In this document: positions 27,502-41,526 of the stretch, one piece after another
Layout of the letters: every line of letters begins with the position of its first letter
Position numbering within the stretch: position 1 is the first letter of the stretch
DNA from: Candidatus Nanohalobium sp.
GTDB lineage: Archaea; Nanohalarchaeota; Nanosalinia; Nanosalinales; Nanosalinaceae
Length of the DNA stretch: 64,000 nt
Assembly (NCBI GenBank): GCA_042217555.1
Contig: JBDGSL010000002.1
Location: 64,001-128,000 of the forward strand
Direction: 5' to 3'
Program-made: the position numbers and the translations under genes
Notes under the pieces: model-generated
The model's input: the letters and a program-made list of their open reading frames with translations, nothing else
Databases searched by the model: none
What the model was told of the DNA's origin: nothing

Positions 27502-27770
27502 TGGAAGTTGACAGAGCATGGGAAGTTATCGAAAATCCACACATGACAGAACAGGCGATGGACATGATCGACGAAGAAAACAAACTCGTCCTCATGGTGG
27601 ATCTGGAAGCAGACAAAGGCCAGGTAGAGGACGCAGTAGAGACTCTGTTCGATGTGGATGTTGAGAAGGTCAATACTAACATCACGTCTTCCGCAAAGAA
27701 AAAAGCATACGTAAGACTAAGTCCAAGTGACAGCGCGATGGACGTCGCGACTGAGCTTGGCATGATGTGA
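27501..27770 (+). CDS. rpl23: 50S ribosomal protein L23 (uL23)
   Basis: PHMTE...ENKL...KVNT...KKAYVRL. Confidence 0.96.
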   Translation: MEVDRAWEVIENPHMTEQAMDMIDEENKLVLMVDLEADKGQVEDAVETLFDVDVEKVNTNITSSAKKKAYVRLSPSDSAMDVATELGMM

Positions 27771-27780
27771 GGTAGGTAAT

Positions 27781-27834
27781 ATGACTAAAATCGAAGATTT
27801 TATGGGTTACCAGAAACTCGGTGAGTTTCGATAA
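27781..27834 (+). CDS. Intergenic micro-ORF L23/L2, 17 aa MTKIEDFMGYQKLGEFR
   Basis: Own SD (GAGGTAGGT); TAATG overlap with the L2 start. Confidence 0.6.
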   Translation: MTKIEDFMGYQKLGEFR

Positions 27835-28535
27835 TGGGATCGCCACTAAAACAGCAGAGAAGAGGAAAGGGAAGTCCAAACTTCCAGGCCAATAAGAAAG
27901 GCAAGGGAGTAACGGATCACAAAAACGCAGAAGTAACGGGAACAGTAGTAGACCTGGTCCACGACCCGGCCAGGACAGCACCGGTAGCAAAAGTAGAGTT
28001 CGAAGACGGAGAAGTCAGAAACATTCTTGCACCGGAAGGCCTACAGACAGGAGACGAAATTCAGGTCGGAGTATCAGCACCTGTAGAACCCGGAAACGTA
28101 CTTCCACTAGGAGAAATCCCGGAAGGAGTACCAATCAACAACATCGAACTACAGCCAAACGACGGAGGAAAAATGGTTAAGGCATCAGGAACATACGCAT
28201 TCGTCGTAACACAGGAGCAGGACGGAGTAAGAATCAAGCTTCCAAGCGGTGACTTCAAGAAACTCGATACTGAATGCAGAGCAACAGTTGGAAAGGTTGC
28301 AGCCGGCGGAAGAAAAGACAAGCCGCTTGTCAAGGCCGGAAACGCATCCAAGGCTGCAAAGGCTCGTGGAAAACAGTACCCAACTGTCTCCGCAGTAGCC
28401 ATGAACGCAGTCGACCACCCATTCGGTGGATCAGCAAAACCAGGACAGCCAAAGACAGTTTCCAAGCACGCTTCACCAGGAAGCAAGGTTGGAAACATCG
28501 GAGCCAAACGCTCCGGAAAGAAGAACAACGACTAG
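27834..28535 (+). CDS. rpl2: 50S ribosomal protein L2 (uL2)
   Basis: QQRRGKGSP, HDPARTAP and AMNAVDHPFGG. Confidence 0.97.
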   Translation: MGSPLKQQRRGKGSPNFQANKKGKGVTDHKNAEVTGTVVDLVHDPARTAPVAKVEFEDGEVRNILAPEGLQTGDEIQVGVSAPVEPGNVLPLGEIPEGVPINNIELQPNDGGKMVKASGTYAFVVTQEQDGVRIKLPSGDFKKLDTECRATVGKVAAGGRKDKPLVKAGNASKAAKARGKQYPTVSAVAMNAVDHPFGGSAKPGQPKTVSKHASPGSKVGNIGAKRSGKKNND

Positions 28536-28545
28536 GTGAACCCGC

Positions 28546-28605
28546 ATGACTAAAATCAAAGATTTTATGGCATTGCAGAAAACCACTGAGGTGGTTTTCG
28601 AATGA
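28546..28605 (+). CDS. Intergenic micro-ORF L2/S19, 19 aa MTKIKDFMALQKTTEVVFE
   Basis: Own SD AGGTGA; ATGA overlap with S19; near-identical 5' half to 27781-27834. Confidence 0.65.
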   Translation: MTKIKDFMALQKTTEVVFE

Positions 28606-28979
28606 CAGAAGAATTCACTTACAGAGGAAAAACACTCGAAGAACTCCAGGACATGAGCCACGACGAACTAGCACCGCTTATGGATGCCCGGGCTCGCAGA
28701 AAACTGGAGAGAGGTCTTCGAGAAAACGAGGAAAAACTACTGGAAAAACTGGAGGACAAGGACCGTGTCCAGACACATCTCAGAGGAATGATCGTCCTTC
28801 CAGAAATGGTAGGAAAGACTATCGAGATCTACAACGGGCAAGGATTCGAAGAGGTTGATATTGAAGAAGAGATGATTGGCCACTACCTAGGAGAGTTCGC
28901 AAAAACCAGGAAAGAAGTATCACACAGCGCACCAGGACTCGGTGCTACAAGATCTTCAAAGCACGTACCGCTTAAGTGA
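28602..28979 (+). CDS. rps19: 30S ribosomal protein S19 (uS19)
   Basis: FTYRGK, THLRGMIVLPEMVG and EMIGHYLGEF. Confidence 0.97.
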   Translation: MTEEFTYRGKTLEELQDMSHDELAPLMDARARRKLERGLRENEEKLLEKLEDKDRVQTHLRGMIVLPEMVGKTIEIYNGQGFEEVDIEEEMIGHYLGEFAKTRKEVSHSAPGLGATRSSKHVPLK

Positions 28980-28984
28980 TTCAA

Positions 28985-29092
28985 ATGCGAAAATCAGAGA
29001 TTCGAAAATTCGGAGAATTTTCTCCAAGAAATTCCTCACGGAATTTCGTTTTCAGCCTTCCCAGAAACTCACAAGGTGAGTTTCGGCAATGA
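28985..29092 (+). CDS. Intergenic micro-ORF S19/L22, 35 aa MRKSEIRKFGEFSPRNSSRNFVFSLPRNSQGEFRQ
   Basis: Starts 5 nt after the S19 stop; ATGA overlap with L22. Confidence 0.6.
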   Translation: MRKSEIRKFGEFSPRNSSRNFVFSLPRNSQGEFRQ

Positions 29093-29511
29093 ACAAGATC
29101 GAAACAGAACCACATCAGGCAAGAGCACTCGGCAAGAACATGCCGATCTCCTGGAAAGACGCAACAGAAATCGGCCGCTTCATCAAGGGAGACACGGTCG
29201 AAAAAGCAGAGAGAAAACTGGAAAAGGTAACGGAAGAAGAACTCGCCGTACCGTACACAAAGTTCGACAGCGACGCAGGCCACCGAAGCGGAGACGGAGA
29301 CTCAGGAAAATATCCTGTCAAAGCAGCAGAACACATGCTTGAAGTCGTACAGGAAGCAGCAAGCAACGCAGAACACCAGGGACTTAACCCGGGATCACTG
29401 CATGTAGAAAACGTCATCACAAACAAAGGAAACGAGTACGCAACCCCTGGACGGTTTAGGGGAGAGAAAACCAAGGCAGCACATGTCAACGTAATCGTAG
29501 GTGAAAAGTAA
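29089..29511 (+). CDS. rpl22: 50S ribosomal protein L22 (uL22)
   Basis: ISWKDATEIGRFIKG, GKYPVKAA and NAEHQGL. Confidence 0.96.
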   Translation: MNKIETEPHQARALGKNMPISWKDATEIGRFIKGDTVEKAERKLEKVTEEELAVPYTKFDSDAGHRSGDGDSGKYPVKAAEHMLEVVQEAASNAEHQGLNPGSLHVENVITNKGNEYATPGRFRGEKTKAAHVNVIVGEK

Positions 29512-29615
29512 TGAATCGAAAACGAAAATTCAGTGAATTTTCTCAGAGAAAATCCTCAGGGATTTTCGGATCAGAGATTTTCTCAGTGATTTACACGCAA
29601 GGTGAAAATCAATAA
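29511..29615 (+). CDS. Intergenic micro-ORF L22/S3, 34 aa MNRKRKFSEFSQRKSSGIFGSEIFSVIYTQGENQ
   Basis: TAATG overlaps at both ends; own SD AGGTGA. Confidence 0.65.
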   Translation: MNRKRKFSEFSQRKSSGIFGSEIFSVIYTQGENQ

Positions 29616-30769
29616 TGCAAGAGAAACAGTTTATTGAGAAGGGAGCAAGGAAGGTAAGGCTTGATGAGTTCTTCTCGGATGAGCTTGCAGGAGCAGGTTA
29701 TTCCAACTGTGAAATTGAGAGGACTCCTACAAGTACCAAAATCGTAGTACATGCACAGAAACCAGGACTGGTTATAGGACGTGGTGGAAGCAGGATTCAG
29801 GAACTGACTGAAGATCTTGAAAGCGAGTTCGATTTCGAGAACCCGCAGATCGAGGTCAGCGAGATCGATGAACCGGATGCAGACGCAAAGGTCGTGGCGA
29901 AGAGTATTGCAGACTGGCTTGAGAAAGGAGGCCACGCCAAACGTGTAGGATACACATACGTCCGCAGGATGAAAGAAGCAGGTGTTATCGGAGCAGAGAT
30001 AGAGATTACAGGAAAACTCTCCGGTAACAGAGGAAGAACAGAGAAGTTCTCCTTCGGATACGTCAAGAGATGTGGAGACACCTCAAAGAAAAACGTTCAG
30101 AAAGGATACGAGCTAGCCCGTACCAAACCAGGTGCTATCGGTGTCAAAGTAAGGATCATGAAGGACATGCCAGGTTTCCTTCACAGAGACGTCGATGTAA
30201 GCGGTGAAGTCCTCCATGAAGTCCAGGAAACTGAGGAAGCAAGAGATAAATCCACGAGGATTGAGGAAGTCGTCAGAGAAGCAGAGAATATGACTTCGGC
30301 AGAGCTTGAAAGAGCTATCGAGGAGAAGACAGAGGAAGTCAAGACAGACGACATCTCCAAGGAGGAAATCAGGGAAGCCTTCGACTCCGCTGACGCAGTA
30401 GAGAAACTGGAGGAAGAAGCTGAAGAAGTCGAAGAAGAAGCAGAGGAAATCATCGAGGAAGAAACAGGTGAAGAACAGGAAGAAGACGTTGAAGCAACTG
30501 AAAAGGAAGCTGAAGAAGTCAAAGAAGAGGCAGAGAAAGTTGCTGAAGAGACAGAGGATGAAGACGTAGAAGAAAAGGCTGAAGAAGTTGAGGAGGAAAT
30601 GGAAGAAGTAGAAAAAGACCTTGAGGAAATCGTCTCAGGTACGATAAGCGATGCCAAAGAGATGATCAACGAACTGGAGAATCCTGACTTCACAGCCCTG
30701 CTCGAGGCAGAGAAAGAGAACAAGGACCGTAAAACCTTCAAGGACTGGCTTGAAACCCGGAAGGATTAA
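29615..30769 (+). CDS. rps3: 30S ribosomal protein S3 (uS3) with long acidic C-terminal extension
   Basis: KH domain PGLVIGRGG; GAIGVKVRIM; ~195-aa E-rich tail. Confidence 0.96.
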   Translation: MQEKQFIEKGARKVRLDEFFSDELAGAGYSNCEIERTPTSTKIVVHAQKPGLVIGRGGSRIQELTEDLESEFDFENPQIEVSEIDEPDADAKVVAKSIADWLEKGGHAKRVGYTYVRRMKEAGVIGAEIEITGKLSGNRGRTEKFSFGYVKRCGDTSKKNVQKGYELARTKPGAIGVKVRIMKDMPGFLHRDVDVSGEVLHEVQETEEARDKSTRIEEVVREAENMTSAELERAIEEKTEEVKTDDISKEEIREAFDSADAVEKLEEEAEEVEEEAEEIIEEETGEEQEEDVEATEKEAEEVKEEAEKVAEETEDEDVEEKAEEVEEEMEEVEKDLEEIVSGTISDAKEMINELENPDFTALLEAEKENKDRKTFKDWLETRKD

Positions 30770-30794
30770 AAGAGCTGAGAGGTGAAACCAAACC

Positions 30795-30983
30795 GTGAAA
30801 GCAGAAGAACTAAGAGAGAAGAGCGTATCCGAACTGAAGGAAGAACTTGGAAACCTTCAGAAAGAACTCGTACAGCAGAGAGGACAGATCGAGGCCGGAG
30901 GATTCGCTGACAGCCCGGGAGAGATCAAAGAGATGAAGAAAACCATTGCAAGAATCAAAACAGTTCTCAACGAACGCAACTAG
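30795..30983 (+). CDS. rpl29: 50S ribosomal protein L29 (uL29)
   Basis: MKAEELRE...IKEMKKTIARIKTVLNE. Confidence 0.95.
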   Translation: MKAEELREKSVSELKEELGNLQKELVQQRGQIEAGGFADSPGEIKEMKKTIARIKTVLNERN

Positions 30984-30989
30984 ATACTA

Positions 30990-31097
30990 ATGAACGAAAT
31001 TCACAGAATTTCTGGAATCAAAGGCCTTTCAGGCCTTCTGCAACCTAGAAACCTGAAAGGTTTCGGAACTGCAGAAAATCGGGAGGCCGATTTTTGA
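30990..31097 (+). CDS. Intergenic micro-ORF L29/SUI1, 35 aa MNEIHRISGIKGLSGLLQPRNLKGFGTAENREADF
   Basis: Starts 6 nt after the L29 stop; TGA abuts the SUI1 ATG; contains four perfect hairpins. Confidence 0.6.
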   Translation: MNEIHRISGIKGLSGLLQPRNLKGFGTAENREADF

Positions 31098-31403
31098 ATG
31101 TCAGAGACCTGTCCAAAGTGCGGAATGCCTGAAGATCTTTGCGTCTGCGACAGCATCGCACGTGAAGATCAACAGATTACAGTAAAACTCGACTCAAGAA
31201 GCTACAATAAAGAGATGACAGTAGTTGAAGGCCTTGAAGAAGGATCAGAAATAGACGAACTGGCCTCGACACTGAAATCCCAACTTGCCTGCGGAGGAAC
31301 AGCCAAGGAAGGCCACATAGAACTTCAGGGCGACCACAGAAGAAGAATCGTCGACATACTGGAAGACGAAGGCTTCTCACGAGAAAACATCGAAGTCAAA
31401 TAA
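31098..31403 (+). CDS. Translation initiation factor aIF1/SUI1
   Basis: CPKCGMPEDLCVC, LKSQLACGGT and IELQGDH. Confidence 0.95.
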   Translation: MSETCPKCGMPEDLCVCDSIAREDQQITVKLDSRSYNKEMTVVEGLEEGSEIDELASTLKSQLACGGTAKEGHIELQGDHRRRIVDILEDEGFSRENIEVK

Positions 31404-31596
31404 ATCTTCGACACATTTTTACTTCTCCATTTTCTCCGTATTGAGTCTCAGTAGCATGACTTACTGATTGGGGGCAGCGATTTTTAGCTTTTCTAAAATT
31501 GGAATATAAGGTTTGAGGACAGGCTTGAGGGAATATTTGATTATGTTGAGGTAGTAGATGAAGATAACTTCCTTGTTGTCAGGGCTGTGAAGTAGT

Positions 31597-31989
31597 TTAC
31601 CTGTTTCTCTCGTGTTTTCTGGCAAACTCTTGCCAGTTGTCTACAATTTTCTGGTATGCCGACCAGTAGTCCAGATGCTCTAGAGGAACTTTGTCGTCCT
31701 TGAAGGGGTGATCCTGGAACTTTAGGTCGATGTGTACAAATCCGTGTGCTGTGTCTAAAGTCACTACTTCCTCGTTTTCCTCTGTCTCAGGATTCCTGCA
31801 GACAAGAGTTATGCAGAAGTCTTCTTTTTCTTCAACGTCTTCTAGTTTATAGTCTGGCCTGTAGACGACCTCATATGCTTTGCCTTTAAACTGTCCCAGA
31901 GATAAGGAGTCGCTGGTCATTGCCGATTTTCCCTCTAAATGTTGTTTGTAATACATCATTGATAAAGTGTTGAGGTCAGACATCATCAC
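31597..31989 (-). CDS. Hypothetical protein, possible toxin partner of the divergent HTH gene
   Basis: VVTLDTAHGFVHID resembles the 'RYDNAHG' motif of DUF6516/TumE-like proteins. Confidence 0.45.
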   Translation of the reverse strand: MMMSDLNTLSMMYYKQHLEGKSAMTSDSLSLGQFKGKAYEVVYRPDYKLEDVEEKEDFCITLVCRNPETEENEEVVTLDTAHGFVHIDLKFQDHPFKDDKVPLEHLDYWSAYQKIVDNWQEFARKHERNR

Positions 31990-32022
31990 TTATTTAAGCT
32001 TTCAGCAACCACATTCCATATA

Positions 32023-32403
32023 GTGGCGGAAATGGAGACTACTACTGCAGAATCTGAAATAGATGTGGAAAAAGAGGGGTCGAAATCCTATGTTGGTGAG
32101 GACACGCTCGAATTTGTCAAAGAAGTTATTGAGAACAACAAAGACGTAAGTACTCACGTCATACCTGCTGAACTTGCCAGGAAGATAATGACGGAGAAAA
32201 GAATAGAGATTATAGAAACTATCAGAGAAGAGGAAATAGAATCCAAAAGAGATCTGGCCAGAAAAGTAGACAGAGACATCAGTGTAGTCTCTAAAGACCT
32301 CAAAGTACTCTGGAAATACGGCATCGTCGAGTACAGGGAAGAAGACAATAACCGGAAGATACCGGAGATCACAGCCGAAAAAATAATAATAGAGCCTCTG
32401 TAA
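32023..32403 (+). CDS. HVO_A0114-like HTH protein (putative antitoxin)
   Basis: KIMTEKRIEIIETI...SKRDLARKVDRDISVVSKDLKVL...GIVE...RKIP. Confidence 0.75.
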   Translation: MAEMETTTAESEIDVEKEGSKSYVGEDTLEFVKEVIENNKDVSTHVIPAELARKIMTEKRIEIIETIREEEIESKRDLARKVDRDISVVSKDLKVLWKYGIVEYREEDNNRKIPEITAEKIIIEPL

Positions 32404-32412
32404 AAACAATGT

Positions 32413-32935
32413 ATGCCGGGCGCAGTATTTCTAGAAGGCGACAAAGTCAACCTCAGAACAGTTGAGGAAGAGGATCTGGAATTTATCAGAGATGCCTATA
32501 ACCATCCTGAGGTTTGGCCTTGGCTAACTCATCAAGGTCCTCAAAACTTGGAGCAGGAGCGAGAATTCTTCGAAAACGTTATCTGCAGTGATGATCAGAT
32601 CAACCTGGCGATTTCCGACGAAGAGACTATAACGGGTTTGATATCTCTCGTTCCGAAAGATGAGGACTGTAGCAGAGATAGGTATCTGGATTCATCCTGA
32701 CTACCACGGAAACGGGTTTGGCACAGAAGCATCTGAACTCTTGGTAAAGTACGCCTTTGACCACAGGAACTACCACAAAATCGTGGCCCGTGCAATTGAG
32801 TCAAACACAGGATCTCAGAAAATCTGGGAGAAACTGGGGTTCCAGAAAGAAGGAGAACAAAGAGAGGAAATGTACAGAGACGGCAAACACAGAGACGTCT
32901 ACTACTACGGCCTCATAGAACACGAGAGAAATTAA
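32413..32935 (+). pseudogene. RimJ/RimL-type GNAT acetyltransferase, frameshifted near 32660-32666
   Basis: N-half VNLRTVEEEDL and C-half AEIGIWIHPDYHGNGFGTEA...SQKIWEKLGFQKEG lie in frames differing by +1. Confidence 0.8.
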
Positions 32936-33535
32936 ATGAGAAACAAAGTGAAGAAAGGCTATGAAGAAGGAGATTATGAATCTGATTACAGGGAAGGCAG
33001 GGACGTAAGGCCTGAAGAAAAAGATTTTTTCGACTCCCTTTCAGACCTGACAGGAGGAGATAAACTACTGGATTTAGGCTGTGGGACTGGAGTTCCTTTC
33101 GACAGGTATCTCTCAGAAAAGGGTTGGAAAGTTACAGGCTTTGATATCGCTGAAACTCACGTGGAAAAAGCCAGGGAAAACGTACCTTCTGGAGAGTTTA
33201 GACAGGGAGACTTCTTTCAACTGGACTTTGAAGAAGGCAGCTTTGACGCTGTAGTCAGCTTCTACGCTATATTCCACATTCCCAGGAAACAGCATTCTAA
33301 ACTGCTTGATAAGATAAGCAGATGGGTGAAACAAGACGGTGCTATTTTGATTACCATGGGAGCAGAAAAAATGGATATGATGGAAGGAGACATAGGAGGA
33401 GAGAAAATGCTGTGGAGCTCATACTCAGCAGAAAAGAACAAAGAAATAGTCAAAGAAGCAGGCTTCAACATAGTTAGCTCATATGAGGAAGACTGGAGAG
33501 AAGAAACACACCTTTGGATCCTAGCAAAACCATGA
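32936..33535 (+). CDS. Class I SAM-dependent methyltransferase
   Basis: LLDLGCGTG and FDAVVSFYAIFHIP. Confidence 0.9.
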   Translation: MRNKVKKGYEEGDYESDYREGRDVRPEEKDFFDSLSDLTGGDKLLDLGCGTGVPFDRYLSEKGWKVTGFDIAETHVEKARENVPSGEFRQGDFFQLDFEEGSFDAVVSFYAIFHIPRKQHSKLLDKISRWVKQDGAILITMGAEKMDMMEGDIGGEKMLWSSYSAEKNKEIVKEAGFNIVSSYEEDWREETHLWILAKP

Positions 33536-33569
33536 TAAAAACAAAATAATTCTCACATCATTATACTAC

Positions 33570-33848
33570 ATGCCACGAACACCTGAAAACCTGCCAAGAC
33601 ACGAACTGATCGGATTGGAAGCAGAAGTAGAGAAGCATCCTGATTCCAACAAAGAAGGTATCTCGGGAGAAGTACTGGATGAAACCCGTGACATGCTGAG
33701 GATAGGCGATAAATGGGTGGAGAAAAAAGGCACTACTTTCCTGTTTGAACTGGGTGAGAAGAAGGTTCGTATCGAAGGCGATATCATCGATAAAAGGCCG
33801 GAGGACAGGTTGAAAATGAAGATGCCTGGTAAATGGGAAAGTGTCTAG
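33570..33848 (+). CDS. rnp1: Ribonuclease P protein component 1 (Rpp29)
   Basis: HELIGL, ISGEVLDETR and KRPEDRLK; usual position between SUI1 and S17. Confidence 0.93.
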   Translation: MPRTPENLPRHELIGLEAEVEKHPDSNKEGISGEVLDETRDMLRIGDKWVEKKGTTFLFELGEKKVRIEGDIIDKRPEDRLKMKMPGKWESV

Positions 33849-33893
33849 TCCCTGTCATTACTGATTTAATATTCGGCGAACAAGATTTTTACC

Positions 33894-34169
33894 GTGGCAG
33901 AGTCTGAAATTGTCTCGTCTGAGGATACTCTTGGCGGTGAGCCACGGATTGAAGGCGCTAGAATCGGTGTTTCGCACATCGTCCAGTACTATGAGAGCGA
34001 GTGGAGTATCGAAAAGATTTCCCGGGAGCTGGACCTTGAACCTTTGGGGGTCGTGAAAGCTCTAGAATACTATTACAAGAATCTTCAGGAGATCCGAGGT
34101 ATAATCAGGGATCGTAAAAGTCGTGGCATTTTGTTTGGAGATGAAGAGGCGTTAGTGGAGAAAGCTTAG
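33894..34169 (+). CDS. DUF433 antitoxin-like protein
   Basis: TLGGEPRIEGARIGV...VVKALEYYY; partner toxin not intact downstream. Confidence 0.82.
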   Translation: MAESEIVSSEDTLGGEPRIEGARIGVSHIVQYYESEWSIEKISRELDLEPLGVVKALEYYYKNLQEIRGIIRDRKSRGILFGDEEALVEKA

Positions 34170-34809
34170 ATGAAGTGATGTTTAGGGAGAGGTTGTGTAA
34201 CTTGATTTTTCTCTGCAGCTGCTGAAAGATTTATCAGCAGGGCCGAATTATATTTGTTCGTGGAATTGATTGTAACTCCGCATGGAGAGGAAGATTTAGA
34301 TTCGCTGGAGAAGACAGGAAGCCTGGGTAGGATAGCGAAAAAGATTAATGAGATAGAGGGGAAGTTGAGCAAGGTTTCGATCCTGAAAAAGTAGTTGAAA
34401 AGCGGACAGGAGGTACGTGGCATCCTATTCTACAGCAAACAGTAGGAGACTATAGGATATGGTTTATCGAGGGTGGAAAAACCAAGAAAGGTGATGAAGA
34501 CAAACTATATTTGATCAGGGTATTGACCAAGCCAGAAGCATTGAAACTACAAGGTGTAGAAGTTAATCCAGATATTTATCTTTAATATCGCTCCAGTTCT
34601 TACCTTCGCCGCTGCCGACCGACTTCAAGGCCTCGATAGTTTTCTCTGCCTCTCTTCTCACATCTTCCGCCACCTTCACAGTTTCAGGCATTTCAATCCA
34701 CCTATGTCCTATTTTGGTATAAAGACTTAAACTTCTTACTGTCTTCCACCATCAGGGCTTGCACCCTTTTTAAGAGTTGTCTTCTTTTTTGTGTTTACGG
34801 CCTTTGGGT

Positions 34810-34940
34810 CGTGGATTTGGGATTCCTGCTGAAAGTCGCTTTCGAGCGAAACTGCAGATAGGGGTCCGGCTGAAAGTGGAAAACCTAGTTTTTCCTTGAT
34901 GGTCGGGTTTCTATGCTTTTTTTCAGCAGGAGTGTTCACG
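34810..34940 (+). promoter_or_regulatory. Structured RNA leader upstream of rps17
   Basis: ATTCCTGCTGAAA (34822-34834) pairs with TTTCAGCAGGAGT (34921-34933); CGTGGAT pairs with GTTCACG; internal TCGCT-TTCG-AGCGA hairpin. Confidence 0.55.
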
Positions 34941-34956
34941 AGGTGAAAAACGAATA

Positions 34957-35229
34957 ATGAGCCAAGAATACGAAGTGCGAGGCGGAACTTTCACAGGGAC
35001 GGTTGTATCTACGAAGATGCAGAAGTCCGCTACGGTGAGATGGGAGCACACACAGGAAATTCCAAAATACGAGAGAAAAGAAAGAAGAAACACCAAGGTC
35101 ACGGTTCACGTACCGGAAGACATTGACATAGAGGAAGGTGACAGAGTTGAGATAGGGGAGACACGGCCCATCTCAAAGACTAAAAGCCATGTAGTGATTG
35201 AAAAAATTGAAAACGGTGGCTCTGAATGA
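34957..35229 (+). CDS. rps17: 30S ribosomal protein S17 (uS17)
   Basis: GTVVSTKMQK and GETRPISKTK. Confidence 0.96.
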   Translation: MSQEYEVRGGTFTGTVVSTKMQKSATVRWEHTQEIPKYERKERRNTKVTVHVPEDIDIEEGDRVEIGETRPISKTKSHVVIEKIENGGSE

Positions 35230-35336
35230 AGATTTCCGCAGGAAATACTTCTGGCCACAGATTCGGAGAATCTGTTAATAGAAGTTCTGAGCAGAAGAAC
35301 TTCGGCAGAAATCACCTCAGAGGTGGTTTCGAATGA
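35226..35336 (+). CDS. Intergenic micro-ORF S17/L14, 36 aa MKISAGNTSGHRFGESVNRSSEQKNFGRNHLRGGFE
   Basis: ATGA overlaps at both ends; four hairpins. Confidence 0.65.
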   Translation: MKISAGNTSGHRFGESVNRSSEQKNFGRNHLRGGFE

Positions 35337-35734
35337 AACCTCTAGGATCGAACATAACACGCTCACTTGACCTGGGAGCAGAACTGACATGTGCAGATAA
35401 CTCCGGAGCCAAAGAACTAAAGATAATAGGCGTTAAGTCCAGAAAGGGCAGAAGAAGCAGAAGAGAAAGCGCAGGAGTCGGAGATGTCGTAAAGGTAAAG
35501 ATACTTAGAGGAGACGAAGAAGTAAGACACCAGGTATTCGACGCAGTTATAGTGCGTCAGGCAAAGGAGTTCGAAAGACCTCAGGGCCTCAGCGTAAAGT
35601 TCGAAGATAACGCAGCAGTCCTGATCGAGGAAGAGACCGGAATGCCGAAAGGAAACGTGACAAAAGGCCCGATCGCAAAGGAAGTAGTACAGAGATTCTC
35701 AGCGATCGGAAAAATCGCGTCAAAGGTGGTTTAA
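35333..35734 (+). CDS. rpl14: 50S ribosomal protein L14 (uL14)
   Basis: CADNSGAK, FEDNAAVLI and GPIAKEV. Confidence 0.97.
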   Translation: MKPLGSNITRSLDLGAELTCADNSGAKELKIIGVKSRKGRRSRRESAGVGDVVKVKILRGDEEVRHQVFDAVIVRQAKEFERPQGLSVKFEDNAAVLIEEETGMPKGNVTKGPIAKEVVQRFSAIGKIASKVV

Positions 35735-35787
35735 TGAATAAAATCGCAGATGTTAAGACTAGCCGGAAACCGGAGGTTTTCAACTAA
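35734..35787 (+). CDS. Intergenic micro-ORF L14/L24, 17 aa MNKIADVKTSRKPEVFN
   Basis: TAATG overlaps at both ends; own SD AGGTGG. Confidence 0.65.
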   Translation: MNKIADVKTSRKPEVFN

Positions 35788-36449
35788 TGGCAGATAAGAC
35801 ACAGAACTGGAGCAAGGAATGGAAGAAAAGCGAGAACCCTCAGAAACAGAGAAAATACAGGAAAAACGCTCCACAGCACGTAAAGGACAAAATGATATCA
35901 GCAAACCTCTCACACGGACTTAGAGACCAACTGGATACAAGAAACCTTCAGGTTAACCTTGGTGACAGGGTTGAAGTCATGAGAGGAGATTTCAAGGGAA
36001 GCAGCGGAATAGTAAGTGCCATAGACAGAAACAGACAGAAGATATACATCGACGGCCTTGAAGTAGAGAGACAGGACGGGACGACAAGAGAAAGACCGTT
36101 CCAGCCTTCAAACCTTCAGATACAGGCACTTAACCTTGAGGACATGGAAAGAATCGAGAAATACGAAGTAGAAGACGCAGAAGAGATCCAGATCGACGAG
36201 GAAGAAGTTGAAGAAGTGCTTGAAGAAGACGATGAGAACGAGATGATGCAGCAGATGCAGGGAGGCGGCGCACAGCCAGACATGGATATAGATGAGGAAG
36301 ACATGGAAGAAATCAAGGAGGCCGCAGAAGAAGCAAGCGAAGATGAAGGTTCCGAAGACGAATCAGAGGAACCCTCAGAAGATGAAGAAGTTGAGGAACA
36401 GGACGAGACAGAAACCTCTGAAGAAGACCAAGAAGGTGAAAAAGAATGA
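35787..36449 (+). CDS. rpl24: 50S ribosomal protein L24 (uL24) with acidic tail
   Basis: PQKQRK, GDRVEVMRGDFKG and PSNLQI. Confidence 0.95.
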   Translation: MADKTQNWSKEWKKSENPQKQRKYRKNAPQHVKDKMISANLSHGLRDQLDTRNLQVNLGDRVEVMRGDFKGSSGIVSAIDRNRQKIYIDGLEVERQDGTTRERPFQPSNLQIQALNLEDMERIEKYEVEDAEEIQIDEEEVEEVLEEDDENEMMQQMQGGGAQPDMDIDEEDMEEIKEAAEEASEDEGSEDESEEPSEDEEVEEQDETETSEEDQEGEKE

Positions 36450-37105
36450 CACATCAGAAAAGACTTTCAGCACCCAAGCATTATCCCATCTCCAGGAAAG
36501 AGAACACTTACATCTCGACGGTTAAGGGAAGCAGAAGTATCGAAGACGCTATCCCGGCCAATGTTTTCCTGAGAGATGTAACAGGTTACGCAGAGACGGA
36601 CAAAGAAGCCAAAAAAATAGTGAGAAACGGAGACCTCCTCAGGAACGGTGAAAGGATCAGGGATGTCAAGCAGGGAATTGGAGTCCTGGACGTAGTAGAG
36701 CTTCCAAAGGCAGAAGAAACTTTCAGGGCAATAAGAGATGGAAAAAACCTTAAATTCATCCCAACAGAGGATAAAAGAACGGCTGCCAAGATCACAGATA
36801 AAACTGTTGAAGACGATGAATTTATCTACCATCTTCACAACGGAGAGAACTTCAGGAGCACTACGGAATATGAAACAGGAAGCACCTTGCTTCTCAAGGA
36901 GGGAGAAGAGGAAGTCAAGCTTGAAGACGGAGCAGATGTTCTTGTTATCTCCGGTCAGCACGCAGGGGAGAAAGCAGAACTTGAAGAGATAAACAGGAGA
37001 GGGATGAATCCCGATACCGGAACGGTTTCGGAAGAAGGCACTGAGTTCGAGACAAAACTTGAAAACCTTGTAGCTCTTGGAGACCTCGAGGTGGTTTTTG
37101 AATGA
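36446..37105 (+). CDS. rps4e: 30S ribosomal protein S4e (eS4)
   Basis: HQKRLSAP, FLRDVTGYA and VISGQHAG. Confidence 0.95.
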   Translation: MTHQKRLSAPKHYPISRKENTYISTVKGSRSIEDAIPANVFLRDVTGYAETDKEAKKIVRNGDLLRNGERIRDVKQGIGVLDVVELPKAEETFRAIRDGKNLKFIPTEDKRTAAKITDKTVEDDEFIYHLHNGENFRSTTEYETGSTLLLKEGEEEVKLEDGADVLVISGQHAGEKAELEEINRRGMNPDTGTVSEEGTEFETKLENLVALGDLEVVFE

Positions 37106-37614
37106 CAGAGAACCCTATGAAGGAGATCAAGGTGGCAAAGGTAACAGTGAATATCAGTGAGGAAAACGTAGGAGATCAGGTTGAGGCAGCTTACGATCTG
37201 ATTGAAAAAATTACAGGTAAAGAGCCTGTCTGGGTAGAGTCAAAGGAAGGAGCGAAGACTTTTGGAAACCGACAGGGCTTGAACATCGGTGCAATGGTAA
37301 CACTTAGAGGAGAGGACGCAGTAGATTTCCTCGAAAAAGTTCGACCAGCTATCGAAGAACTTAACGCTTCAGCTTTCAGCGACGGAAACTTTGCCTTCGG
37401 AATCAGTGAATACATCGATGTTCCAGGAGTGGACTACGATGCAGACATCGGTATGAAAGGTTTCGAGGTGAACGTCGTACTGGAAAGACCTGGATACAGG
37501 GTGAAGAAACGGGATCATAAACCCTCCGAGATCGGAGGCAGTCATAAGGTCTCTAACGATGAAGCAATCGAGTTCGCGGAAAGCAAGCTTGGATTCGAGG
37601 TGAATAATCAATGA
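37102..37614 (+). CDS. rpl5: 50S ribosomal protein L5 (uL5)
   Basis: [20 protein letters not shown] and [12 protein letters not shown]. Confidence 0.96.
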
Positions 37615-37835
37615 GTTATGAGAAGGTTTTAGACCAGATCAAGCACAAGGAGGGTAAGAGAAAGAAGTTTGAGAAGAATAACTCTCCTAAGGAAAGAGAC
37701 TACGGAAAATCCAAGAAAGAATGCAGAAGATGCGGTAGAACAGGTAGAGGAGTTATCAGCAAGTACGGACTTAACTACTGCCGTCAATGCTTCAGAGAAG
37801 TGGCCGAGGAGATCGGCTTCAAACAGCTTAAATAG
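37611..37835 (+). CDS. rps14: 30S ribosomal protein S14 (uS14, Zn-binding)
   Basis: CRRCG...[12 protein letters not shown]. Confidence 0.96.
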
Positions 37836-37847
37836 GTGAGCCGAAAG

Positions 37848-37910
37848 ATGACAAGAGAATACGGAAACAAGTTTTCTAATCTAGAAAACGCCGGAGGCGA
37901 TTCCCAGTGA
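37848..37910 (+). CDS. Intergenic micro-ORF S14/S8, 20 aa MTREYGNKFSNLENAGGDSQ
   Basis: Own SD AGGTGA; GTGA overlap with the S8 start. Confidence 0.6.
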   Translation: MTREYGNKFSNLENAGGDSQ

Positions 37911-38296
37911 AACATGATACACTTAGCGATGCACTGAGCGCGATTAACAACGCGGCCAGGAACAACAAGGATTACGCAGTGGTCTCTCCAACCAGCAGCC
38001 TGCTGAAGAACGTACTGATCGAACTGCAGCAGAACGGTTACATAGGAGTATTTGAACTCGTAGAGGACGGAAAGGGAGGTAAGTTCAAGATAGAGGTAAC
38101 GGACGACATCAATGAATGCAGGCCTGTCAAACCTAACTTTTCAGTGCAGAACGACGAGTTCGACAAGTGGGCCAAGAGATACCTGCCTGCACAGGGATTC
38201 GGCGATCTATTGGTCACGACCTCACACGGAGTAATGACGCATGAAGAAGCCCGTGAGGAAAACCTGGGAGGAAAACTGCTTGGATACGTCTACTAA
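37907..38296 (+). CDS. rps8: 30S ribosomal protein S8 (uS8)
   Basis: DTLSDAL, TTSHGVMTHEEA and GGKLLGYVY. Confidence 0.96.
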   Translation: MKHDTLSDALSAINNAARNNKDYAVVSPTSSLLKNVLIELQQNGYIGVFELVEDGKGGKFKIEVTDDINECRPVKPNFSVQNDEFDKWAKRYLPAQGFGDLLVTTSHGVMTHEEAREENLGGKLLGYVY

Positions 38297-38308
38297 GAGG
38301 TAGAAAAA

Positions 38309-38839
38309 ATGTCAGAAGAAACAACAATCGAGATTCCGGAGGACTTCGACGCAGAATACGAAGAAGGAGTCTTCACTCTTTCAAACGGCGAAGAAGTCAG
38401 TAAGAAGATGGAACACGCACTGGTAGACGTAGAGATCAACGGTCAGGAAGTAACTTTCAGCACTTCCAGCAGTAAGAAAGATGTTCAGAGCATCGTCCAT
38501 ACTTTCAAGAGCCATGTAGAAAACATGATTGAAGGACTGGAAGACGAGCATGTCTACCGGATGAAGGGTGTTTACGCACACTTCCCTATGACTATCAAAC
38601 AGCAAGGTGGCCAGGTAGTGATCGAGAACTTCATGGGTGAAAGAAACCCTAGGAAGGTAGACATTATGGACGGAGTAACTGTAGAGGTAGATGGCGAGGA
38701 CCTGACACTGAAGGGAGCGGACAAGGACGCCGTAAGCCAGACAGCAGCAAGGATCGAACAGGAATGCAAGAAAGGAAACCGTGATCCAAGAACCTTCCAG
38801 GACGGAGTATACATCACACAGAAAGGTGATAGTCAATGA
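38309..38839 (+). CDS. rpl6: 50S ribosomal protein L6 (uL6)
   Basis: VYAHFPM, ENFMGE and RDPRTFQDGVYI. Confidence 0.96.
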   Translation: MSEETTIEIPEDFDAEYEEGVFTLSNGEEVSKKMEHALVDVEINGQEVTFSTSSSKKDVQSIVHTFKSHVENMIEGLEDEHVYRMKGVYAHFPMTIKQQGGQVVIENFMGERNPRKVDIMDGVTVEVDGEDLTLKGADKDAVSQTAARIEQECKKGNRDPRTFQDGVYITQKGDSQ

Positions 38840-38937
38840 GGCAGACCAAAGGTTTGCTTGATACAGAAAACAAAGACTCAACCGGTTTTTCCGGGAGAAG
38901 ATTCAGAGAAGCTTCGAATCAGGTGATTTTCAAATGA
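38836..38937 (+). CDS. Intergenic micro-ORF L6/L32e, 33 aa MRQTKGLLDTENKDSTGFSGRRFREASNQVIFK
   Basis: ATGA overlaps at both ends; own SD AGGTGAT. Confidence 0.65.
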   Translation: MRQTKGLLDTENKDSTGFSGRRFREASNQVIFK

Positions 38938-39269
38938 GTTTTGAGAGACAGGACAAGCACAAGAACAACAAACTGAAAGATAAATCCTGGAGAAGCCCCG
39001 ACGGAGGGCATTCCAAGGTAAGACTTGAGAAAAACGGAGCTGCACCCAAACCCAAGATAGGTTACAGGGCTCCCAGCGAGATAAGAGGAAGACATCCCTC
39101 AGGATACGAAGAAGTACTGGTACACAACACCGGCGACCTGGAAGAGATAGAGGAAGGAGAAGCAGCAAGAATAGCGTCCAAGGTCGGTGGAAGAAAAAGA
39201 GAACAGATAATAGAAAAAGCAGACGAAGAAGACATCAAAGTCCTCAACAGAGGTGAACAGTCAGAATGA
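38934..39269 (+). CDS. rpl32e: 50S ribosomal protein L32e (eL32)
   Basis: FERQ, WRSPDGGHSK and RGRHPSGYEEVLVHN. Confidence 0.95.
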   Translation: MSFERQDKHKNNKLKDKSWRSPDGGHSKVRLEKNGAAPKPKIGYRAPSEIRGRHPSGYEEVLVHNTGDLEEIEEGEAARIASKVGGRKREQIIEKADEEDIKVLNRGEQSE

Positions 39270-39334
39270 TTGATTCTGACTTTGCAGAAGATTCTCTAAA
39301 GAATCTTCGAACCGAGGTGTTTTCGAATGACTGA
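39266..39334 (+). CDS. Intergenic micro-ORF L32e/L19e, 22 aa MIDSDFAEDSLKNLRTEVFSND
   Basis: ATGA overlap upstream; 8-nt ATGACTGA overlap with the L19e start. Confidence 0.55.
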   Translation: MIDSDFAEDSLKNLRTEVFSND

Positions 39335-39770
39335 TCTAAAGTCACAGAAGAGAATGGCCGCAGAAGTAATGGACGTAGGAAAGGATCGTGTCTGGATCAA
39401 CCCTGATGAACAGGAAAAAGTAGAAGAAGCAATCACCAGGAAAGATATCAGGAACCTTGTAGAAGGAGGTACCATCCAGAAAAAAGACGAGGAAGGAAAC
39501 AGCAAAGGTAGAAGCAGAGAGAAAAAGAAACAGAAAAAGAAAGGACGGAGAAAAGGACAGGGAAGCCGGAAAGGAAAGAAATCGGCCAGAAAAGACGATA
39601 AACAGAAGTGGATGGAAAAAATCAGATCCATCAGGGAAAGACTGAAAGAAATGAAGGAAAACGAGGAAATCACCTCTGAACAGTACAGAGAACTCTACGA
39701 CATGAGCAAGGGAGGATTCTTCAGAGACACAAAACACCTAGAAAACCATGTAGAGAACAAACTGGAGTGA
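39327..39770 (+). CDS. rpl19e: 50S ribosomal protein L19e (eL19)
   Basis: LKSQKRMAA, VGKDRVWINP and GSRKGKKSAR. Confidence 0.96.
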   Translation: MTDLKSQKRMAAEVMDVGKDRVWINPDEQEKVEEAITRKDIRNLVEGGTIQKKDEEGNSKGRSREKKKQKKKGRRKGQGSRKGKKSARKDDKQKWMEKIRSIRERLKEMKENEEITSEQYRELYDMSKGGFFRDTKHLENHVENKLE

Positions 39771-39776
39771 ACAGAC

Positions 39777-39818
39777 ATGAAAATCAGAGACCTACAGAAC
39801 ACAGAAGGTGAACTTTGA
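39777..39818 (+). CDS. Intergenic micro-ORF L19e/L18, 13 aa MKIRDLQNTEGEL
   Basis: SD GGAGTGA; TGA ends 1 nt before the L18 ATG (39820). Confidence 0.5.
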   Translation: MKIRDLQNTEGEL

Positions 39819-39819
39819 T

Positions 39820-40329
39820 ATGGCAGAAGACTCAAACACTAAAGTCCCGCACAGAAGACGAAGAGAACAGAAAACAGACTACCAGCAGAGAAGAAAACTG
39901 GTGAAGTCAGGAAAACCAAGAGCAGTAGTAAGACTGAGCAACAAACACACGAGAACACACCTGGCACACTTCAACAGGGAAGGCGATGAGAACACAGCAC
40001 AGACACTCAGCAAAGAACTGGAAAACTACGGCTGGGAACACAACACAGGTAATCTTCCAGCAGCATACCTGACAGGTTTCCTGACCGGTATGAAAGCTGA
40101 AGAAGACGAAGCAGTACTTGATATAGGCCTTAGAGAAAAAAAGAATGGAGGAAGAGTATTTGCAGCAGTTAAAGGCATGAACGACGCAGGACTCAACGTT
40201 CCTGTAGGCGAAGAAGTAATCCCTGAAGAATCAAGGATCAAAGGAGAACACATTAAAGAAATGATCGACGAAGAAGTCCCGAAAAGCTTTGAAGAAGTCA
40301 AAGAAAACATTAAAGGTGATTTCGAATGA
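39820..40329 (+). CDS. rpl18: 50S ribosomal protein L18 (uL18)
   Basis: RRRREQKTDY and GNLPAAYLTG; ATG 39820 has SD AGGTGA. Confidence 0.96.
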   Translation: MAEDSNTKVPHRRRREQKTDYQQRRKLVKSGKPRAVVRLSNKHTRTHLAHFNREGDENTAQTLSKELENYGWEHNTGNLPAAYLTGFLTGMKAEEDEAVLDIGLREKKNGGRVFAAVKGMNDAGLNVPVGEEVIPEESRIKGEHIKEMIDEEVPKSFEEVKENIKGDFE

Positions 40330-40430
40330 TCGAAAATCAGAGATTTTCTGGACTCGAAACCGGAACGGTTTCTATGAGTACAGAATCCGTTGGATTCGAA
40401 CATGCAGAAATTCTAGGTGATTTCGAATGA
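40326..40430 (+). CDS. Intergenic micro-ORF L18/S5, 34 aa MIENQRFSGLETGTVSMSTESVGFEHAEILGDFE
   Basis: ATGA overlaps at both ends; flanked by the direct repeat AGGTGATTTCGAATGA. Confidence 0.65.
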   Translation: MIENQRFSGLETGTVSMSTESVGFEHAEILGDFE

Positions 40431-41092
40431 GCGAACAGGAAACAGAGGAGATTTGGAAGCCGAAGACAGAACTCGGTGAGATGGTAGCTAACGGACAGAT
40501 AACAGGAATCCGTGAAGCACTGAACTCCGACAAGAGGATAATGGAGCCGGAGATAGTTGATCAACTGGCAGATCTTCAGGAAGAAGTAGTACTGATCGGA
40601 GGAACACCTGGAAAGGGAGGGGGCAAGAGAAGAACAGTCTCCAAACGTACGGCTAGGATGCACAAGTCCGGAGCAAGATACAACAGTAAAGCGATGACAA
40701 TACTGGGTAACAAGAACGGTATCGTCGGGATCGGCATGGGAGAATCAGATGACACCCGTGCAGCGATCGACGACGCCAACAGGAGAGCAAAACTCAACCT
40801 GATAGAAGTGCCGCTTGGAAACGGAAGCTGGGAGGACCAGGGAGAAAACAACACTTCCATCCCTCTCGCAGTAGAAGGAAAGTCCGGAAGCGTAACCGTA
40901 GAAGTCAAGCCAGCGCCGAGAGGAACAGGTTTAGCTGCCAGTGACGAGGTAAAGAAGATACTTGAACTGGCTGGCATCCGGAACGCCTGGGTGCAGGCAC
41001 GTGGAACAACACGAACACGTGAAAACCTGATAAAGGCAACATTCAACGCACTGAAAAAAATCAAACAGTACCAGAGAAGTGATGACAGATGA
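40427..41092 (+). CDS. rps5: 30S ribosomal protein S5 (uS5)
   Basis: WKPKTELG, PAPRGTGL and LELAGI. Confidence 0.96.
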   Translation: MSEQETEEIWKPKTELGEMVANGQITGIREALNSDKRIMEPEIVDQLADLQEEVVLIGGTPGKGGGKRRTVSKRTARMHKSGARYNSKAMTILGNKNGIVGIGMGESDDTRAAIDDANRRAKLNLIEVPLGNGSWEDQGENNTSIPLAVEGKSGSVTVEVKPAPRGTGLAASDEVKKILELAGIRNAWVQARGTTRTRENLIKATFNALKKIKQYQRSDDR

Positions 41093-41424
41093 CACTACTA
41101 GTAGCAGTCAAGGTCAGGGGCAGCATCGACGCCTCCGAATCAATCAGCAGGACACTGCAGACACTGGGCCTGGAGAAGAAAAACCAGGCAAGAATCATGG
41201 AAGACAATGAGTCCAACAGAGGGATGCTGAGAAAGGCCAAGGACTACATCGCCTACGGAGAAGTAGACCAGGAAACCGTAGAGCAGCTTGAAGCAGAGAC
41301 AGGAGAAACAGTCACTCTATCACCTCCAAGTGGAGGATTCAAAAGCACGAAAAAACAGCGTCACCAGGGAGGAAGTCTCGGAAAAAGGGACGACATGGAA
41401 GAACTCCTTGGAAAGATGCTGTAA
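41089..41424 (+). CDS. rpl30: 50S ribosomal protein L30 (uL30)
   Basis: VAVKVRG, GMLRKAKDYIAYGE and LSPPSGGF. Confidence 0.94.
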   Translation: MTLLVAVKVRGSIDASESISRTLQTLGLEKKNQARIMEDNESNRGMLRKAKDYIAYGEVDQETVEQLEAETGETVTLSPPSGGFKSTKKQRHQGGSLGKRDDMEELLGKML

Positions 41425-41472
41425 CCGAAAATCGAGAGATTTTCTAAAAAATTCAACACACAGTGTTCAACA

Positions 41473-41526
41473 ATGCGAAATTCAAAGAATTTCTGTATTA
41501 CCAGAAGCACAGAGGTGCTTCGATAA
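41473..41526 (+). CDS. Intergenic micro-ORF L30/L15, 17 aa MRNSKNFCITRSTEVLR
   Basis: TAATG overlap with L15; ATG is 48 nt after the L30 stop but the same frame is open back to that stop. Confidence 0.45.
   Translation: MRNSKNFCITRSTEVLR

Follow-up and report, generated by a model that had tools for sequence, protein, structure and literature searches.

The hairpins that cover the Shine-Dalgarno (SD) sequences of ribosomal-protein genes in the window, the whole 64,000-nt stretch of DNA analysed here, are probably parts of a tolerated mobile double-hairpin element that relays ribosomes by termination-reinitiation, the SD cover being a by-product. As read from the DNA, the element is patchily present, belongs to a dispersed family, carries a continuous frame whose stop overlaps the next start codon, and conserves no peptide. 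We infer that it is actually translated, that ribosomes reinitiate behind it, and that an enzyme acting in trans moves it.

The closest relatives of the L2 protein are Nanohaloarchaeota records (74-80%), and the host S10-spc operon is interrupted by an island of about 3.5 kb between SUI1 and S17. Pfam confirmed the gene names at the eight stems of the original prediction. Each stem is the second hairpin of a two-hairpin insert of about 50 nt, CGAAA…TTTCG, nested copies reaching about 100 nt. In total, 14 junctions of the operon carry this insert, called cassette below.

25707..43392 (+), host S10-spc ribosomal-protein operon of a nanohaloarchaeon, L3 to secY (Pfam)
27442..27501 (+), cassette L4-L23: micro-ORF of 19 codons with SD GAGGTG, overlapping by -4 on its left and -1 on its right, hairpins imperfect
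27781..27834 (+), cassette L23-L2: micro-ORF of 17 codons with an overlap of -1 on the right, two hairpins
27813..27829 (+), SD-covering hairpin before L2: GGTGA, -5.5 kcal/mol
28546..28605 (+), cassette L2-S19: micro-ORF of 19 codons, right overlap -4, the ancestral spacing of 10 nt retained on the left
28578..28599 (+), SD-covering hairpin before S19: GAGGTG, -10.3 kcal/mol
28985..29092 (+), nested cassette S19-L22: 35-codon micro-ORF, inner element within the first hairpin
29064..29084 (+), SD-covering hairpin before L22: AGGTGA, -9.8 kcal/mol
29511..29615 (+), old cassette L22-S3: 34-codon micro-ORF, last hairpin imperfect
30990..31097 (+), nested cassette L29-SUI1: 35-codon micro-ORF, stop abutting the start codon
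31075..31094 (+), hairpin before SUI1: SD GGAGG in 5' arm and loop, -8.0 kcal/mol
35226..35336 (+), nested cassette S17-L14: 36-codon micro-ORF, -4 left and right
35308..35330 (+), SD-covering hairpin before L14: GAGGTG, -10.9 kcal/mol
35734..35787 (+), cassette L14-L24: 17-codon micro-ORF, -1 left and right, first hairpin decayed
35767..35779 (+), weak SD-covering hairpin before L24: GGAGGT, -1.4 kcal/mol as written
37085..37105 (+), S4e-L5 junction without cassette: SD-to-ATG spacer like a cassette right end
37848..37910 (+), cassette S14-S8: 20-codon micro-ORF, -4 overlap onto a GTG start
37889..37899 (+), weak SD-covering hairpin before S8: GGAGG, -3.7 kcal/mol
38836..38937 (+), nested cassette L6-L32, decayed: intact micro-ORF of 33 codons, last stem at chance level
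39266..39334 (+), decayed cassette L32-L19: 22-codon micro-ORF, -4 left and -8 right, last stem at chance level
39777..39818 (+), decayed cassette L19-L18: hairpins gone, SD and a micro-ORF of 13 codons still intact
40326..40430 (+), nested cassette L18-S5: micro-ORF of 34 codons, SD-to-ATG stretch directly repeated on either side of the cassette, weak last stem
41427..41526 (+), pair of elements separating L30 from L15: the second alone forms a 17-codon micro-ORF (41473-41526)
41504..41521 (+), SD-covering hairpin before L15: GAGGTG, -8.9 kcal/mol
46856..47012 (+), tRNA-Ser(GGA) gene, its intron holding an SD-free hairpin of the cassette family
50066..50195 (+), tRNA-Gln(CTG) gene, its intron holding a cassette-family hairpin

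Each of the eight predicted hairpin strings occurs once in the window, 2-7 nt ahead of a start codon. Their isolated stem energies range from -10.9 to -1.4 kcal/mol, L24 and S8 being weak. The SD had been placed in the loop and 3' arm; part of it does lie in the loop in 8/8, but the GGAGG of SUI1 sits in the 5' arm and loop. The start codon, a GTG for S8, is outside the stem in all eight. The 16S 3' end, read from the congener G003, is GAUCACCUCC; it was not found in the window's own assembly. Folds were compared with chance by keeping the last 16 nt fixed and shuffling the 18 nt upstream. All eight regions folded better than their shuffles (p 0.007-0.043), a result which overstates the case because the stems were chosen after being seen. 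Two of the other six cassette junctions (L23 and S3) passed the same test, those of L32, L19, L18 and S5 failed it (p 0.24-0.63), and none of the eight cassette-free junctions passed (p at least 0.086). The predicted cost of opening positions -15 to +3 had a median of 9.5 kcal/mol where a cassette is present (47 junctions) and of 4.9 where none is (593 junctions). The proposal that initiation is blocked until a ribosome melts the stem is thereby upheld in part, at the level of modelled folding: the SD is predicted to be occluded, and the stem lies within the last codons of a micro-ORF with its stop at the start codon, so that a terminating ribosome would melt it.

The frame through the cassettes points to a relay. 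Micro-ORFs of relay cassettes have 13-20 codons, or 33-36 when elements nest. Held-out copies were collected with a cassette model trained on junction copies; 45 of its 51 held-out hits were on a start codon, a placement partly built in by this training. A relay ORF ending at the next start codon was present in 42/45 held-out copies versus 10/90 for other frames, while the remaining 3/45 failed the test. Relay stops were found at -4, -1 or 0 in 76/86 copies (35, 28 and 13, respectively), and 20/86 right ends were GTG. Two micro-ORFs of the window differ on their left side: that of L29-SUI1 starts on its own ATG without SD, like the empty alleles there, and that of L30-L15 starts 48 nt past the L30 stop, meaning that the relay is broken on the left. 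SD use was 45% for closely spaced genes versus 10-12% for leading genes, a reinitiation pattern. The first hairpin was read in all three frames (27/24/11). Conserved small peptides were rejected on account of these three frames and of the lack of any Pfam match among the four micro-ORFs of testable length.

We propose that a non-autonomous, mobile double-hairpin element of Nanohaloarchaeota, about 50 nt long, supplies the stems as its second hairpin, one subfamily carrying an SD in this hairpin as well as a stop codon and (A/G)TG at the right end. Upon insertion at a start codon, the SD and ATG position of the host would open a throw-away ORF. A ribosome reading this ORF would melt both hairpins, terminate on the stop overlapping or abutting the gene start, and reinitiate there. 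The relay would keep essential coupled genes working, and the insert would consequently be tolerated. The SD cover would make the gene dependent on the relay, as a by-product of the palindromic build and not as a host control. In a study on H. volcanii, a spacer of about 22 nt abolishes reinitiation (PMC10666635), so a 50-nt insert would need an ORF.

The cassettes are far from being fixed. Among the genomes compared, which are kin and whose genes were called in this analysis, 7/41 matching S10-spc junctions of three congeners are filled (4/23 for the eight named genes), and across 39 loci at most 33/259 junctions of these eight genes are. Empty alleles are overlapping or 0-15-nt junctions with an SD, that is, already in a coupling configuration. 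The L4-L23 cassette is missing in 3/3 congeners, and the L23-L2 junction is empty in two of the three, the third carrying a different subfamily. The L22-S3 cassette is common to all four congeners, its second nested element being found only in the window copy; a long spacer is present at this junction in 17/39 loci, and selection may retain some copies. The S19-L22 cassette matches its counterpart from another genus, located at this junction too, at 103/107 nt; for copies at one junction compared between genera, identity is 96% and 92%, with flanks at 68-83%. A near-identical cassette is located before rrp41 in the congener G000 and, one gene away, before rrp42 in the congener G003, each genome being empty at the other site. 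Spacers resembling deletion scars were found at 8/114 empty junctions in cassette-rich genomes versus 4/479 in others, a weak excess with three of them within the L18 coding sequence; judging from its sequence, the S4e-L5 spacer is possibly such a scar. In contigs of four DNA runs, one run, maybe of the source sample, spans several inserts unchanged. Contig joints skipping inserts showed 85% likeness and came from different strains or species, which indicates empty alleles in relatives and not polymorphism in the source strain.

The family extends well beyond this operon. Genome-wide, we detected 143 intergenic family hairpins versus 2-3 in three shuffles, and 57 hairpin clusters versus 1 and 3. 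The cassette model matched 41/61 genomes, with no match in four outgroups or in 17 haloarchaeal or methanococcal operon loci; its hits are mostly at 33-50% GC, in archaea. The SD-bearing subfamily is located on start codons of housekeeping genes. Other copies of the family were found in tRNA introns and flanks, in both ends of an IS605 in the window's genome, within a tnpB gene on a metagenome contig, and behind target genes of DGR type; one genome has such a paralogue with the insert and another without it. In-frame coding inserts of 18 and 20 codons are absent from G003, and one coding insert causes a frameshift. The same architecture was present in non-halophile contigs. Triloops are biased toward purine-N-A (37/50 and 12/14, versus about 28% expected). 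A wider scheme, which we advance tentatively, is that a widespread archaeal double-hairpin DNA, lacking an SD in tRNA introns, at IS605 and DGR ends and in non-halophile archaea, gave rise to a Nanohaloarchaeota subfamily whose second hairpin acquired an SD and which actively targets start codons in essential coupled genes, homing between genera and moved by an undescribed enzyme reading purine-N-A triloop DNA hairpins. If so, this would be a translation-transparent mobile element and a third way, besides introns and inteins, into essential operons.

A survey of Y1_Tnp, RVT_1 and TnpB revealed no mobilising enzyme among these that is co-distributed with the element. The distribution does not support IS605 TnpA as mobiliser: a Y1 transposase occurs in only 5/61 genomes, and none turned up in complete genomes having 15-28 cassette matches. 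Nor does it support the DGR reverse transcriptase (6/61 genomes) or TnpB (above cut-off in 13/61, including two without a cassette match). No regular target-site duplication was found, matches of at least 4 nt beyond the ATG being present in 4/86 copies; own-flank matches beyond the shared ATG barely exceeded those of cross-pairings (mean 1.06 versus 0.78 nt upstream), and flanking direct repeats were isolated, 5-13 nt long. Two patterns searched in IMG/VR for viral carriers gave no match. A GART bias was seen at the right end of 6/12 non-start units, only a lead because the linker orientation is ambiguous (14/32 fit both ways and 3/6 start-proximal ones are misoriented).

The original prediction held that the stems block de novo initiation and enforce stoichiometric synthesis of ribosomal proteins, which would make the cassette a domesticated regulator kept by the host for equimolar production. 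We consider this unlikely. Predicted occlusion is indeed roughly doubled at filled junctions, the last hairpin contains an SD of at least 5 nt in 16/18 start-proximal clusters versus 12/124 other terminal hairpins, and genes behind cassettes mostly encode complex subunits (ribosome, RNA polymerase, A/V-ATPase, exosome). Yet most orthologous junctions have no insert, coupling is already in place in the empty alleles, and the older copies before L32, L19, L18 and S5 have lost the stem while keeping ORF and SD. The anticipated compensatory changes do exist across genomes, as strong covariation, but the alignments indicate that the mobile family as a whole, first hairpin included, shares this covariation, which is not special to the SD stem: the first hairpin, distant from any SD, is 97% paired versus 72-81% for the second, and the family covaries equally where no ribosome-binding site exists. 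For coupled gene pairs of E. coli, PMC6728339 proposes that de novo initiation is blocked by local structure; in haloarchaea, by its account, such initiation is not driven by the SD, so a stem would be unnecessary there, and the nanohaloarchaeal lineage has a similar SD pattern. A conserved cis-regulatory leader was rejected, since the clade does not retain the element at any one gene and Rfam at gathering scores gave no match in the window; in 20 other loci Rfam returned only tRNAs and two sub-threshold matches.

Local template switching or short duplications, spread by ordinary recombination on SD/ATG similarity, would dispense with enzyme-driven mobility. Freely covarying arms, as expected from such events, the lack of transposase correlates, same-junction copies shared between genera, and some larger junction inserts in which about 22-45 nt from the end of the upstream gene are repeated are all compatible with this origin. 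We judge it quite unlikely nonetheless, as it accounts neither for the triloop bias nor for one architecture in unrelated coding genes, tRNA introns, IS and DGR ends and non-halophile contigs. A role of the hairpins as signals for mRNA processing or stability, or as sites for protein binding, the ORF being secondary, would agree with the conserved outer GAAA/TTTC arms and with sites in highly used operons and beside tRNAs; patchy occupancy, copies in coding genes and in the ends of IS, and a frame continuity well over chance make it very improbable. Excision of the inserts from mRNA as BHB introns, by the endonuclease that splices tRNAs, is barely conceivable despite the abundance of the family within tRNA introns, since a strict bulge-helix-bulge spans the ends in 0/14 window cassettes, a relaxed motif occurs in two versus 0.7 expected (11/25 tRNA introns pass), and a spliced insert would need no relay ORF.

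The mobile relay element resembles, by description and not by sequence, the mycobacterial MIRU. As described (Supply et al. 1997 via PMC12548453, PMC3184786), MIRU are dispersed repeats of about 40-100 bp with internal inverted repeats and filled and empty sites, inserted at start codons with an internal ORF coupled to the next gene by a -4 overlap, a coupling proposed to minimise harm. The cassette shares the size range, the inverted repeats, the filled and empty orthologous junctions and, on the held-out copies above, an apparently coupled internal ORF. Unlike the GC-rich MIRU of Mycobacterium, it is an AT-rich GAAA/TTTC double hairpin of an archaeal host, lacks regular tetranucleotide direct repeats on both sides, uses -4, -1 and 0 overlaps, holds its SD inside the second hairpin, nests, and has a sister form that lacks the SD and occurs in tRNA introns, in IS ends and within coding genes. 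As described for translational coupling (Huber et al. 2019 PMC6728339; 2023 PMC10666635), where termination-reinitiation has a strict distance limit, it shows -4/-1 stop-start overlaps and an SD in the upstream ORF; unlike between host genes, this ORF is a disposable frame from a mobile insert. Small clustered palindromes also recall REP/BIME with RAYT and IS200/IS605 ends, as covered in PMC3184786, but the cassette alignment has no GTAG foot or demonstrated RAYT-type flanking arrangement, and the scarcity of Y1 transposases sets it apart from IS200/IS605 derivatives. Its short CGAAA…TTTCG terminal inverted repeats, judged by eye in the listed units, are like those of TIR-type MITEs, without their fixed target-site duplication. 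Fungal mitochondrial double-hairpin elements and Rickettsia palindromic elements are tiny mobile repeats that insert between genes, into introns and, keeping the frame, into genes. The cassette family is likewise tiny, palindromic and found in varied sites, but differs in hosts and sequence, and we know of no relay ORF or start-codon subfamily among those elements. A literature search, most subscription papers being outside its reach, found no published description of the cassette.

The cassette thus appears as an archaeal, apparently independent counterpart of the MIRU strategy, in which selfish DNA may enter the most essential operons and stay harmless through termination-reinitiation. Its filled, empty and decayed alleles are a natural test of the need of archaeal coupling for stop-start contact, SD and RNA structure. 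The family also confuses annotation, through spurious small ORFs and through tRNA genes missed unless introns are searched: seven tRNA genes were found without an intron search and 54 candidates with it.

The ribosomal-protein region of the window, which is part of a 1.3-Mb assembly, was identified by Pfam as the archaeal S10-spc operon running from L3 to secY, and the nearest named relatives of its L2 are Nanohaloarchaeota (74-80% identity). We looked at the hairpins that had been predicted to bury the Shine-Dalgarno sequence (SD) in the loop and 3' arm before L2, S19, L22, SUI1, L14, L24, S8 and L15. All eight stems exist as they had been written, each occurring once and lying 2-7 nt 5' of the start codon. 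The SD is split between loop and arm in all eight, the arm being the 5' one before SUI1. Upstream regions of the eight genes, which were chosen after the fact, all fold better than shuffles (p < 0.05), while 0 of 8 cassette-free junctions do. In total, 14 window junctions have a 49-114-nt spacer, each with a 13-36-codon micro-ORF that stops between -8 and +1 relative to the next start. Thirteen of these micro-ORFs start -4 to +12 nt from the upstream stop, the exception being the one before L15, which starts 48 nt from it. Within SUI1-rnp1-S17, the operon also contains an island whose size differs widely between relatives.

Island within SUI1-rnp1-S17 (window coordinates)
31420-34950: whole island, with DUF7718, an HTH protein, a GNAT acetyltransferase, a methyltransferase and DUF433 (Pfam)
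32413-32935: the GNAT acetyltransferase, split over two frames

The window spacers are inserts, which we call cassettes: double hairpins of about 50 nt, or about 100 nt when nested. The operon was retrieved from 40 relatives, and among the 41 junctions of three congeners that match the 14 of the window, only 7 hold a cassette (4 of 23 for the eight genes). One of the other matching congener junctions is taken up by an unrelated 356-nt ORF; at the rest, the genes overlap or are 0-21 nt apart, in most cases with an SD. Over 39 loci, a spacer of at least 30 nt precedes the eight genes at no more than 33 of 259 junctions, and inserts of the same kind occur at different junctions in other genera (one row reading N was left out of this comparison). 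Other kinds of insert were also observed. The L2-S19 junction of L032 and of L038 is taken up by an unrelated ORF about 100-110 codons long, which has a flanking SD and a stop near the next start. Larger inserts at L6-L32 (L063 and L054), L22-S3 (L057) and L15-secY (L034) copy about 22-45 nt from the end of the upstream gene together with SD and start codon, and one of them holds a module also present in tRNA introns. At L32-L19, loci of two other families (e.g. L053-L056 and L061) contain a small zinc-ribbon-like ORF of about 50-60 codons with CxxC twice.

The most similar cassette pair of the set stands before rrp41 in the genome carrying the window (G000) and before rrp42 in a congener (G003), each genome being empty at the other's site. 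The nested S19-L22 cassette is identical at 103 of 107 nt to a copy in another genus, with flanking genes at 78-83%, and the same junction is empty in three congeners. Similarly, the L5-S14 cassette pair shares 54 of 59 nt versus 68-78% in the flanks. The L22-S3 copies, which are related by common descent, diverge as their flanks do (83-90% versus 81-91%). A fixed target duplication was not found at cassettes with a micro-ORF reaching the next start (relay cassettes), and neither Y1 transposase, reverse transcriptase nor TnpB tracks cassette number. Purine-N-A triloops closed by C-G are exceptionally stable when formed in DNA, not in RNA. The hairpin loops are mostly of this type (37/50, 12/14 and 35/38 in the sense strand), which points to a function of the hairpins at the DNA level.

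Members of the hairpin family occur throughout the genome. With a strict search, we found 143 intergenic hairpins versus 2, 2 and 3 in shuffles, and 33 coding ones, which is near chance (20-31 in shuffles). Copies are found in tRNA introns and tRNA flanks. Most tRNA genes of G000 have an intron at the canonical position (e.g. window 46856-47012 and 50066-50195); these introns are mosaics of recurring hairpin modules, and several of the genes are intron-free in G003. An IS200/IS605 element with TnpA and TnpB (L072:1330-3000, contig C11 of G000) has family hairpins in both ends, and a metagenome IS605 (L263) contains the double-hairpin element in frame within tnpB. The double-hairpin element also lies immediately 3' of three DGR-type target-gene ends and is missing behind a paralogous one; in G003, one such gene is filled and a paralogue empty. 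Two coding genes contain in-frame family inserts of 18 and 20 codons, both missing from G003, and one contains a frameshifting insert.

DGR-like loci with a reverse transcriptase and FGE-sulfatase-fold target genes
G000, contig C75:52121-53330
G000, contig C38:1357-1950
G000, contig C86:2700-2878
Retrieved locus L098:9229-10540
Retrieved locus L103:13233-16362

A covariance model trained on 27 junction copies, with the best 93 candidates per genome scored, matched 41 of 61 genomes: 27/36 in the taxonomic family, 13/20 in other families of the order and 0/4 in outgroups. Among 17 haloarchaeal or methanococcal operon loci, it had no match. A metagenome pattern scan yielded at least 120 stretches; among the 80 retrieved, a second hairpin is present in 48 and a relay ORF in only 2. 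Several of these matches adjoin archaeal-type genes on low-GC contigs and have a second hairpin without SD, indicating that an SD-free sister form occurs more widely. A near-identical SD-free double hairpin with common flanks recurs at unrelated loci of low-GC metagenome contigs, which suggests that another lineage has an active subfamily.

Loci of the recurring SD-free double hairpin
L272, L276, L277, L283, L294, L306, L329, L332, L335, L340

We then consider what the start-codon copies keep. In a search blind to SD and strand, the last hairpin contains an SD of at least 5 nt in 16 of 18 start-proximal clusters of G000 and G003, versus 12 of 124 terminal hairpins elsewhere, a few of which are junction copies misplaced by gene calling. 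Among 51 held-out model matches (at least 33 bits, outside the training set, two cut by a locus edge left out), 45 finish at a long ORF's start. A relay ORF is present in 42 of these 45 versus 10/90 for the two other frames, in a set where seven copies have more than one candidate start, five use TTG or GTG, and matches are not independent; two of the failures end in a stop 10 nt early. Stops fall at -4, -1 or 0 in 76 of 86 relay cassettes and all three frames are used across the first hairpin (27, 24 and 11 of 62), meaning that frame and overlap are conserved and the peptide is not. Downstream genes have an NCBIfam match in 30 of 31 cases tested and are nearly all housekeeping, including r-proteins, RNA polymerase, A/V-ATPase, exosome, aIF2-gamma and tRNA ligases.

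The original prediction, whose observation is confirmed, interpreted the buried SD as a block to de novo initiation that is lifted when a ribosome translating the micro-ORF melts the stem. This interpretation is partly supported. At filled junctions, the initiation region is predicted to take about twice as much energy to open as at empty ones (median 9.5 versus 4.9 kcal/mol; SD alone, 5.1 versus 2.5 kcal/mol); the pattern that defined "filled" here overlooked five window cassettes and let in about three unrelated spacers. Both helices show covariation in two alignments, the second of which was fitted to the structure. Contrarily, the first hairpin, remote from the SD, is better paired than the second, and the last stem does not exceed chance before L32, L19, L18 and S5, where ORF and SD are still present. 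The other reading is a relay, in which the ribosome would read the micro-ORF, terminate at the next start codon and reinitiate there. An SD precedes 105/233 (G000) and 94/211 (G003) closely spaced genes versus 33/336 and 35/299 leading genes. This resembles the pattern of haloarchaea, where, according to excerpts of PMC6728339, the SD is used for reinitiation but not for starting translation de novo. H. volcanii no longer reinitiates across a spacer of about 22 nt, as stated in an extract of PMC10666635. Therefore, an insert as long as 50 nt would be expected to persist at a coupled junction only if translated to the next start, which accounts for the ORF and leaves the stem in need of no regulatory purpose. 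We infer that Nanohaloarchaeota reinitiate as H. volcanii does.

Among known systems, the mycobacterial MIRU comes nearest: the portions available of PMC12548453 and PMC3184786 describe it as a mobile unit that enters at start codons, with coupling at -4. Judged from these portions, the cassette works like MIRU but differs from it in host and composition as well as in direct repeats. The literature searched, which leaves most subscription journals outside, contained no paper on the cassette. Altogether, the cassette is an archaeal coupling-preserving mini-element, with its translation and mobilising enzyme putative.

Two proteins of the operon have a long acidic C-terminal extension past the Pfam domain, namely S3 (window 29615-30769, 384 aa) and L24 (window 35787-36449, 220 aa). 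Finally, a 2583-aa ORF lies away from the operon finding, on the minus strand at window 8691-16442.
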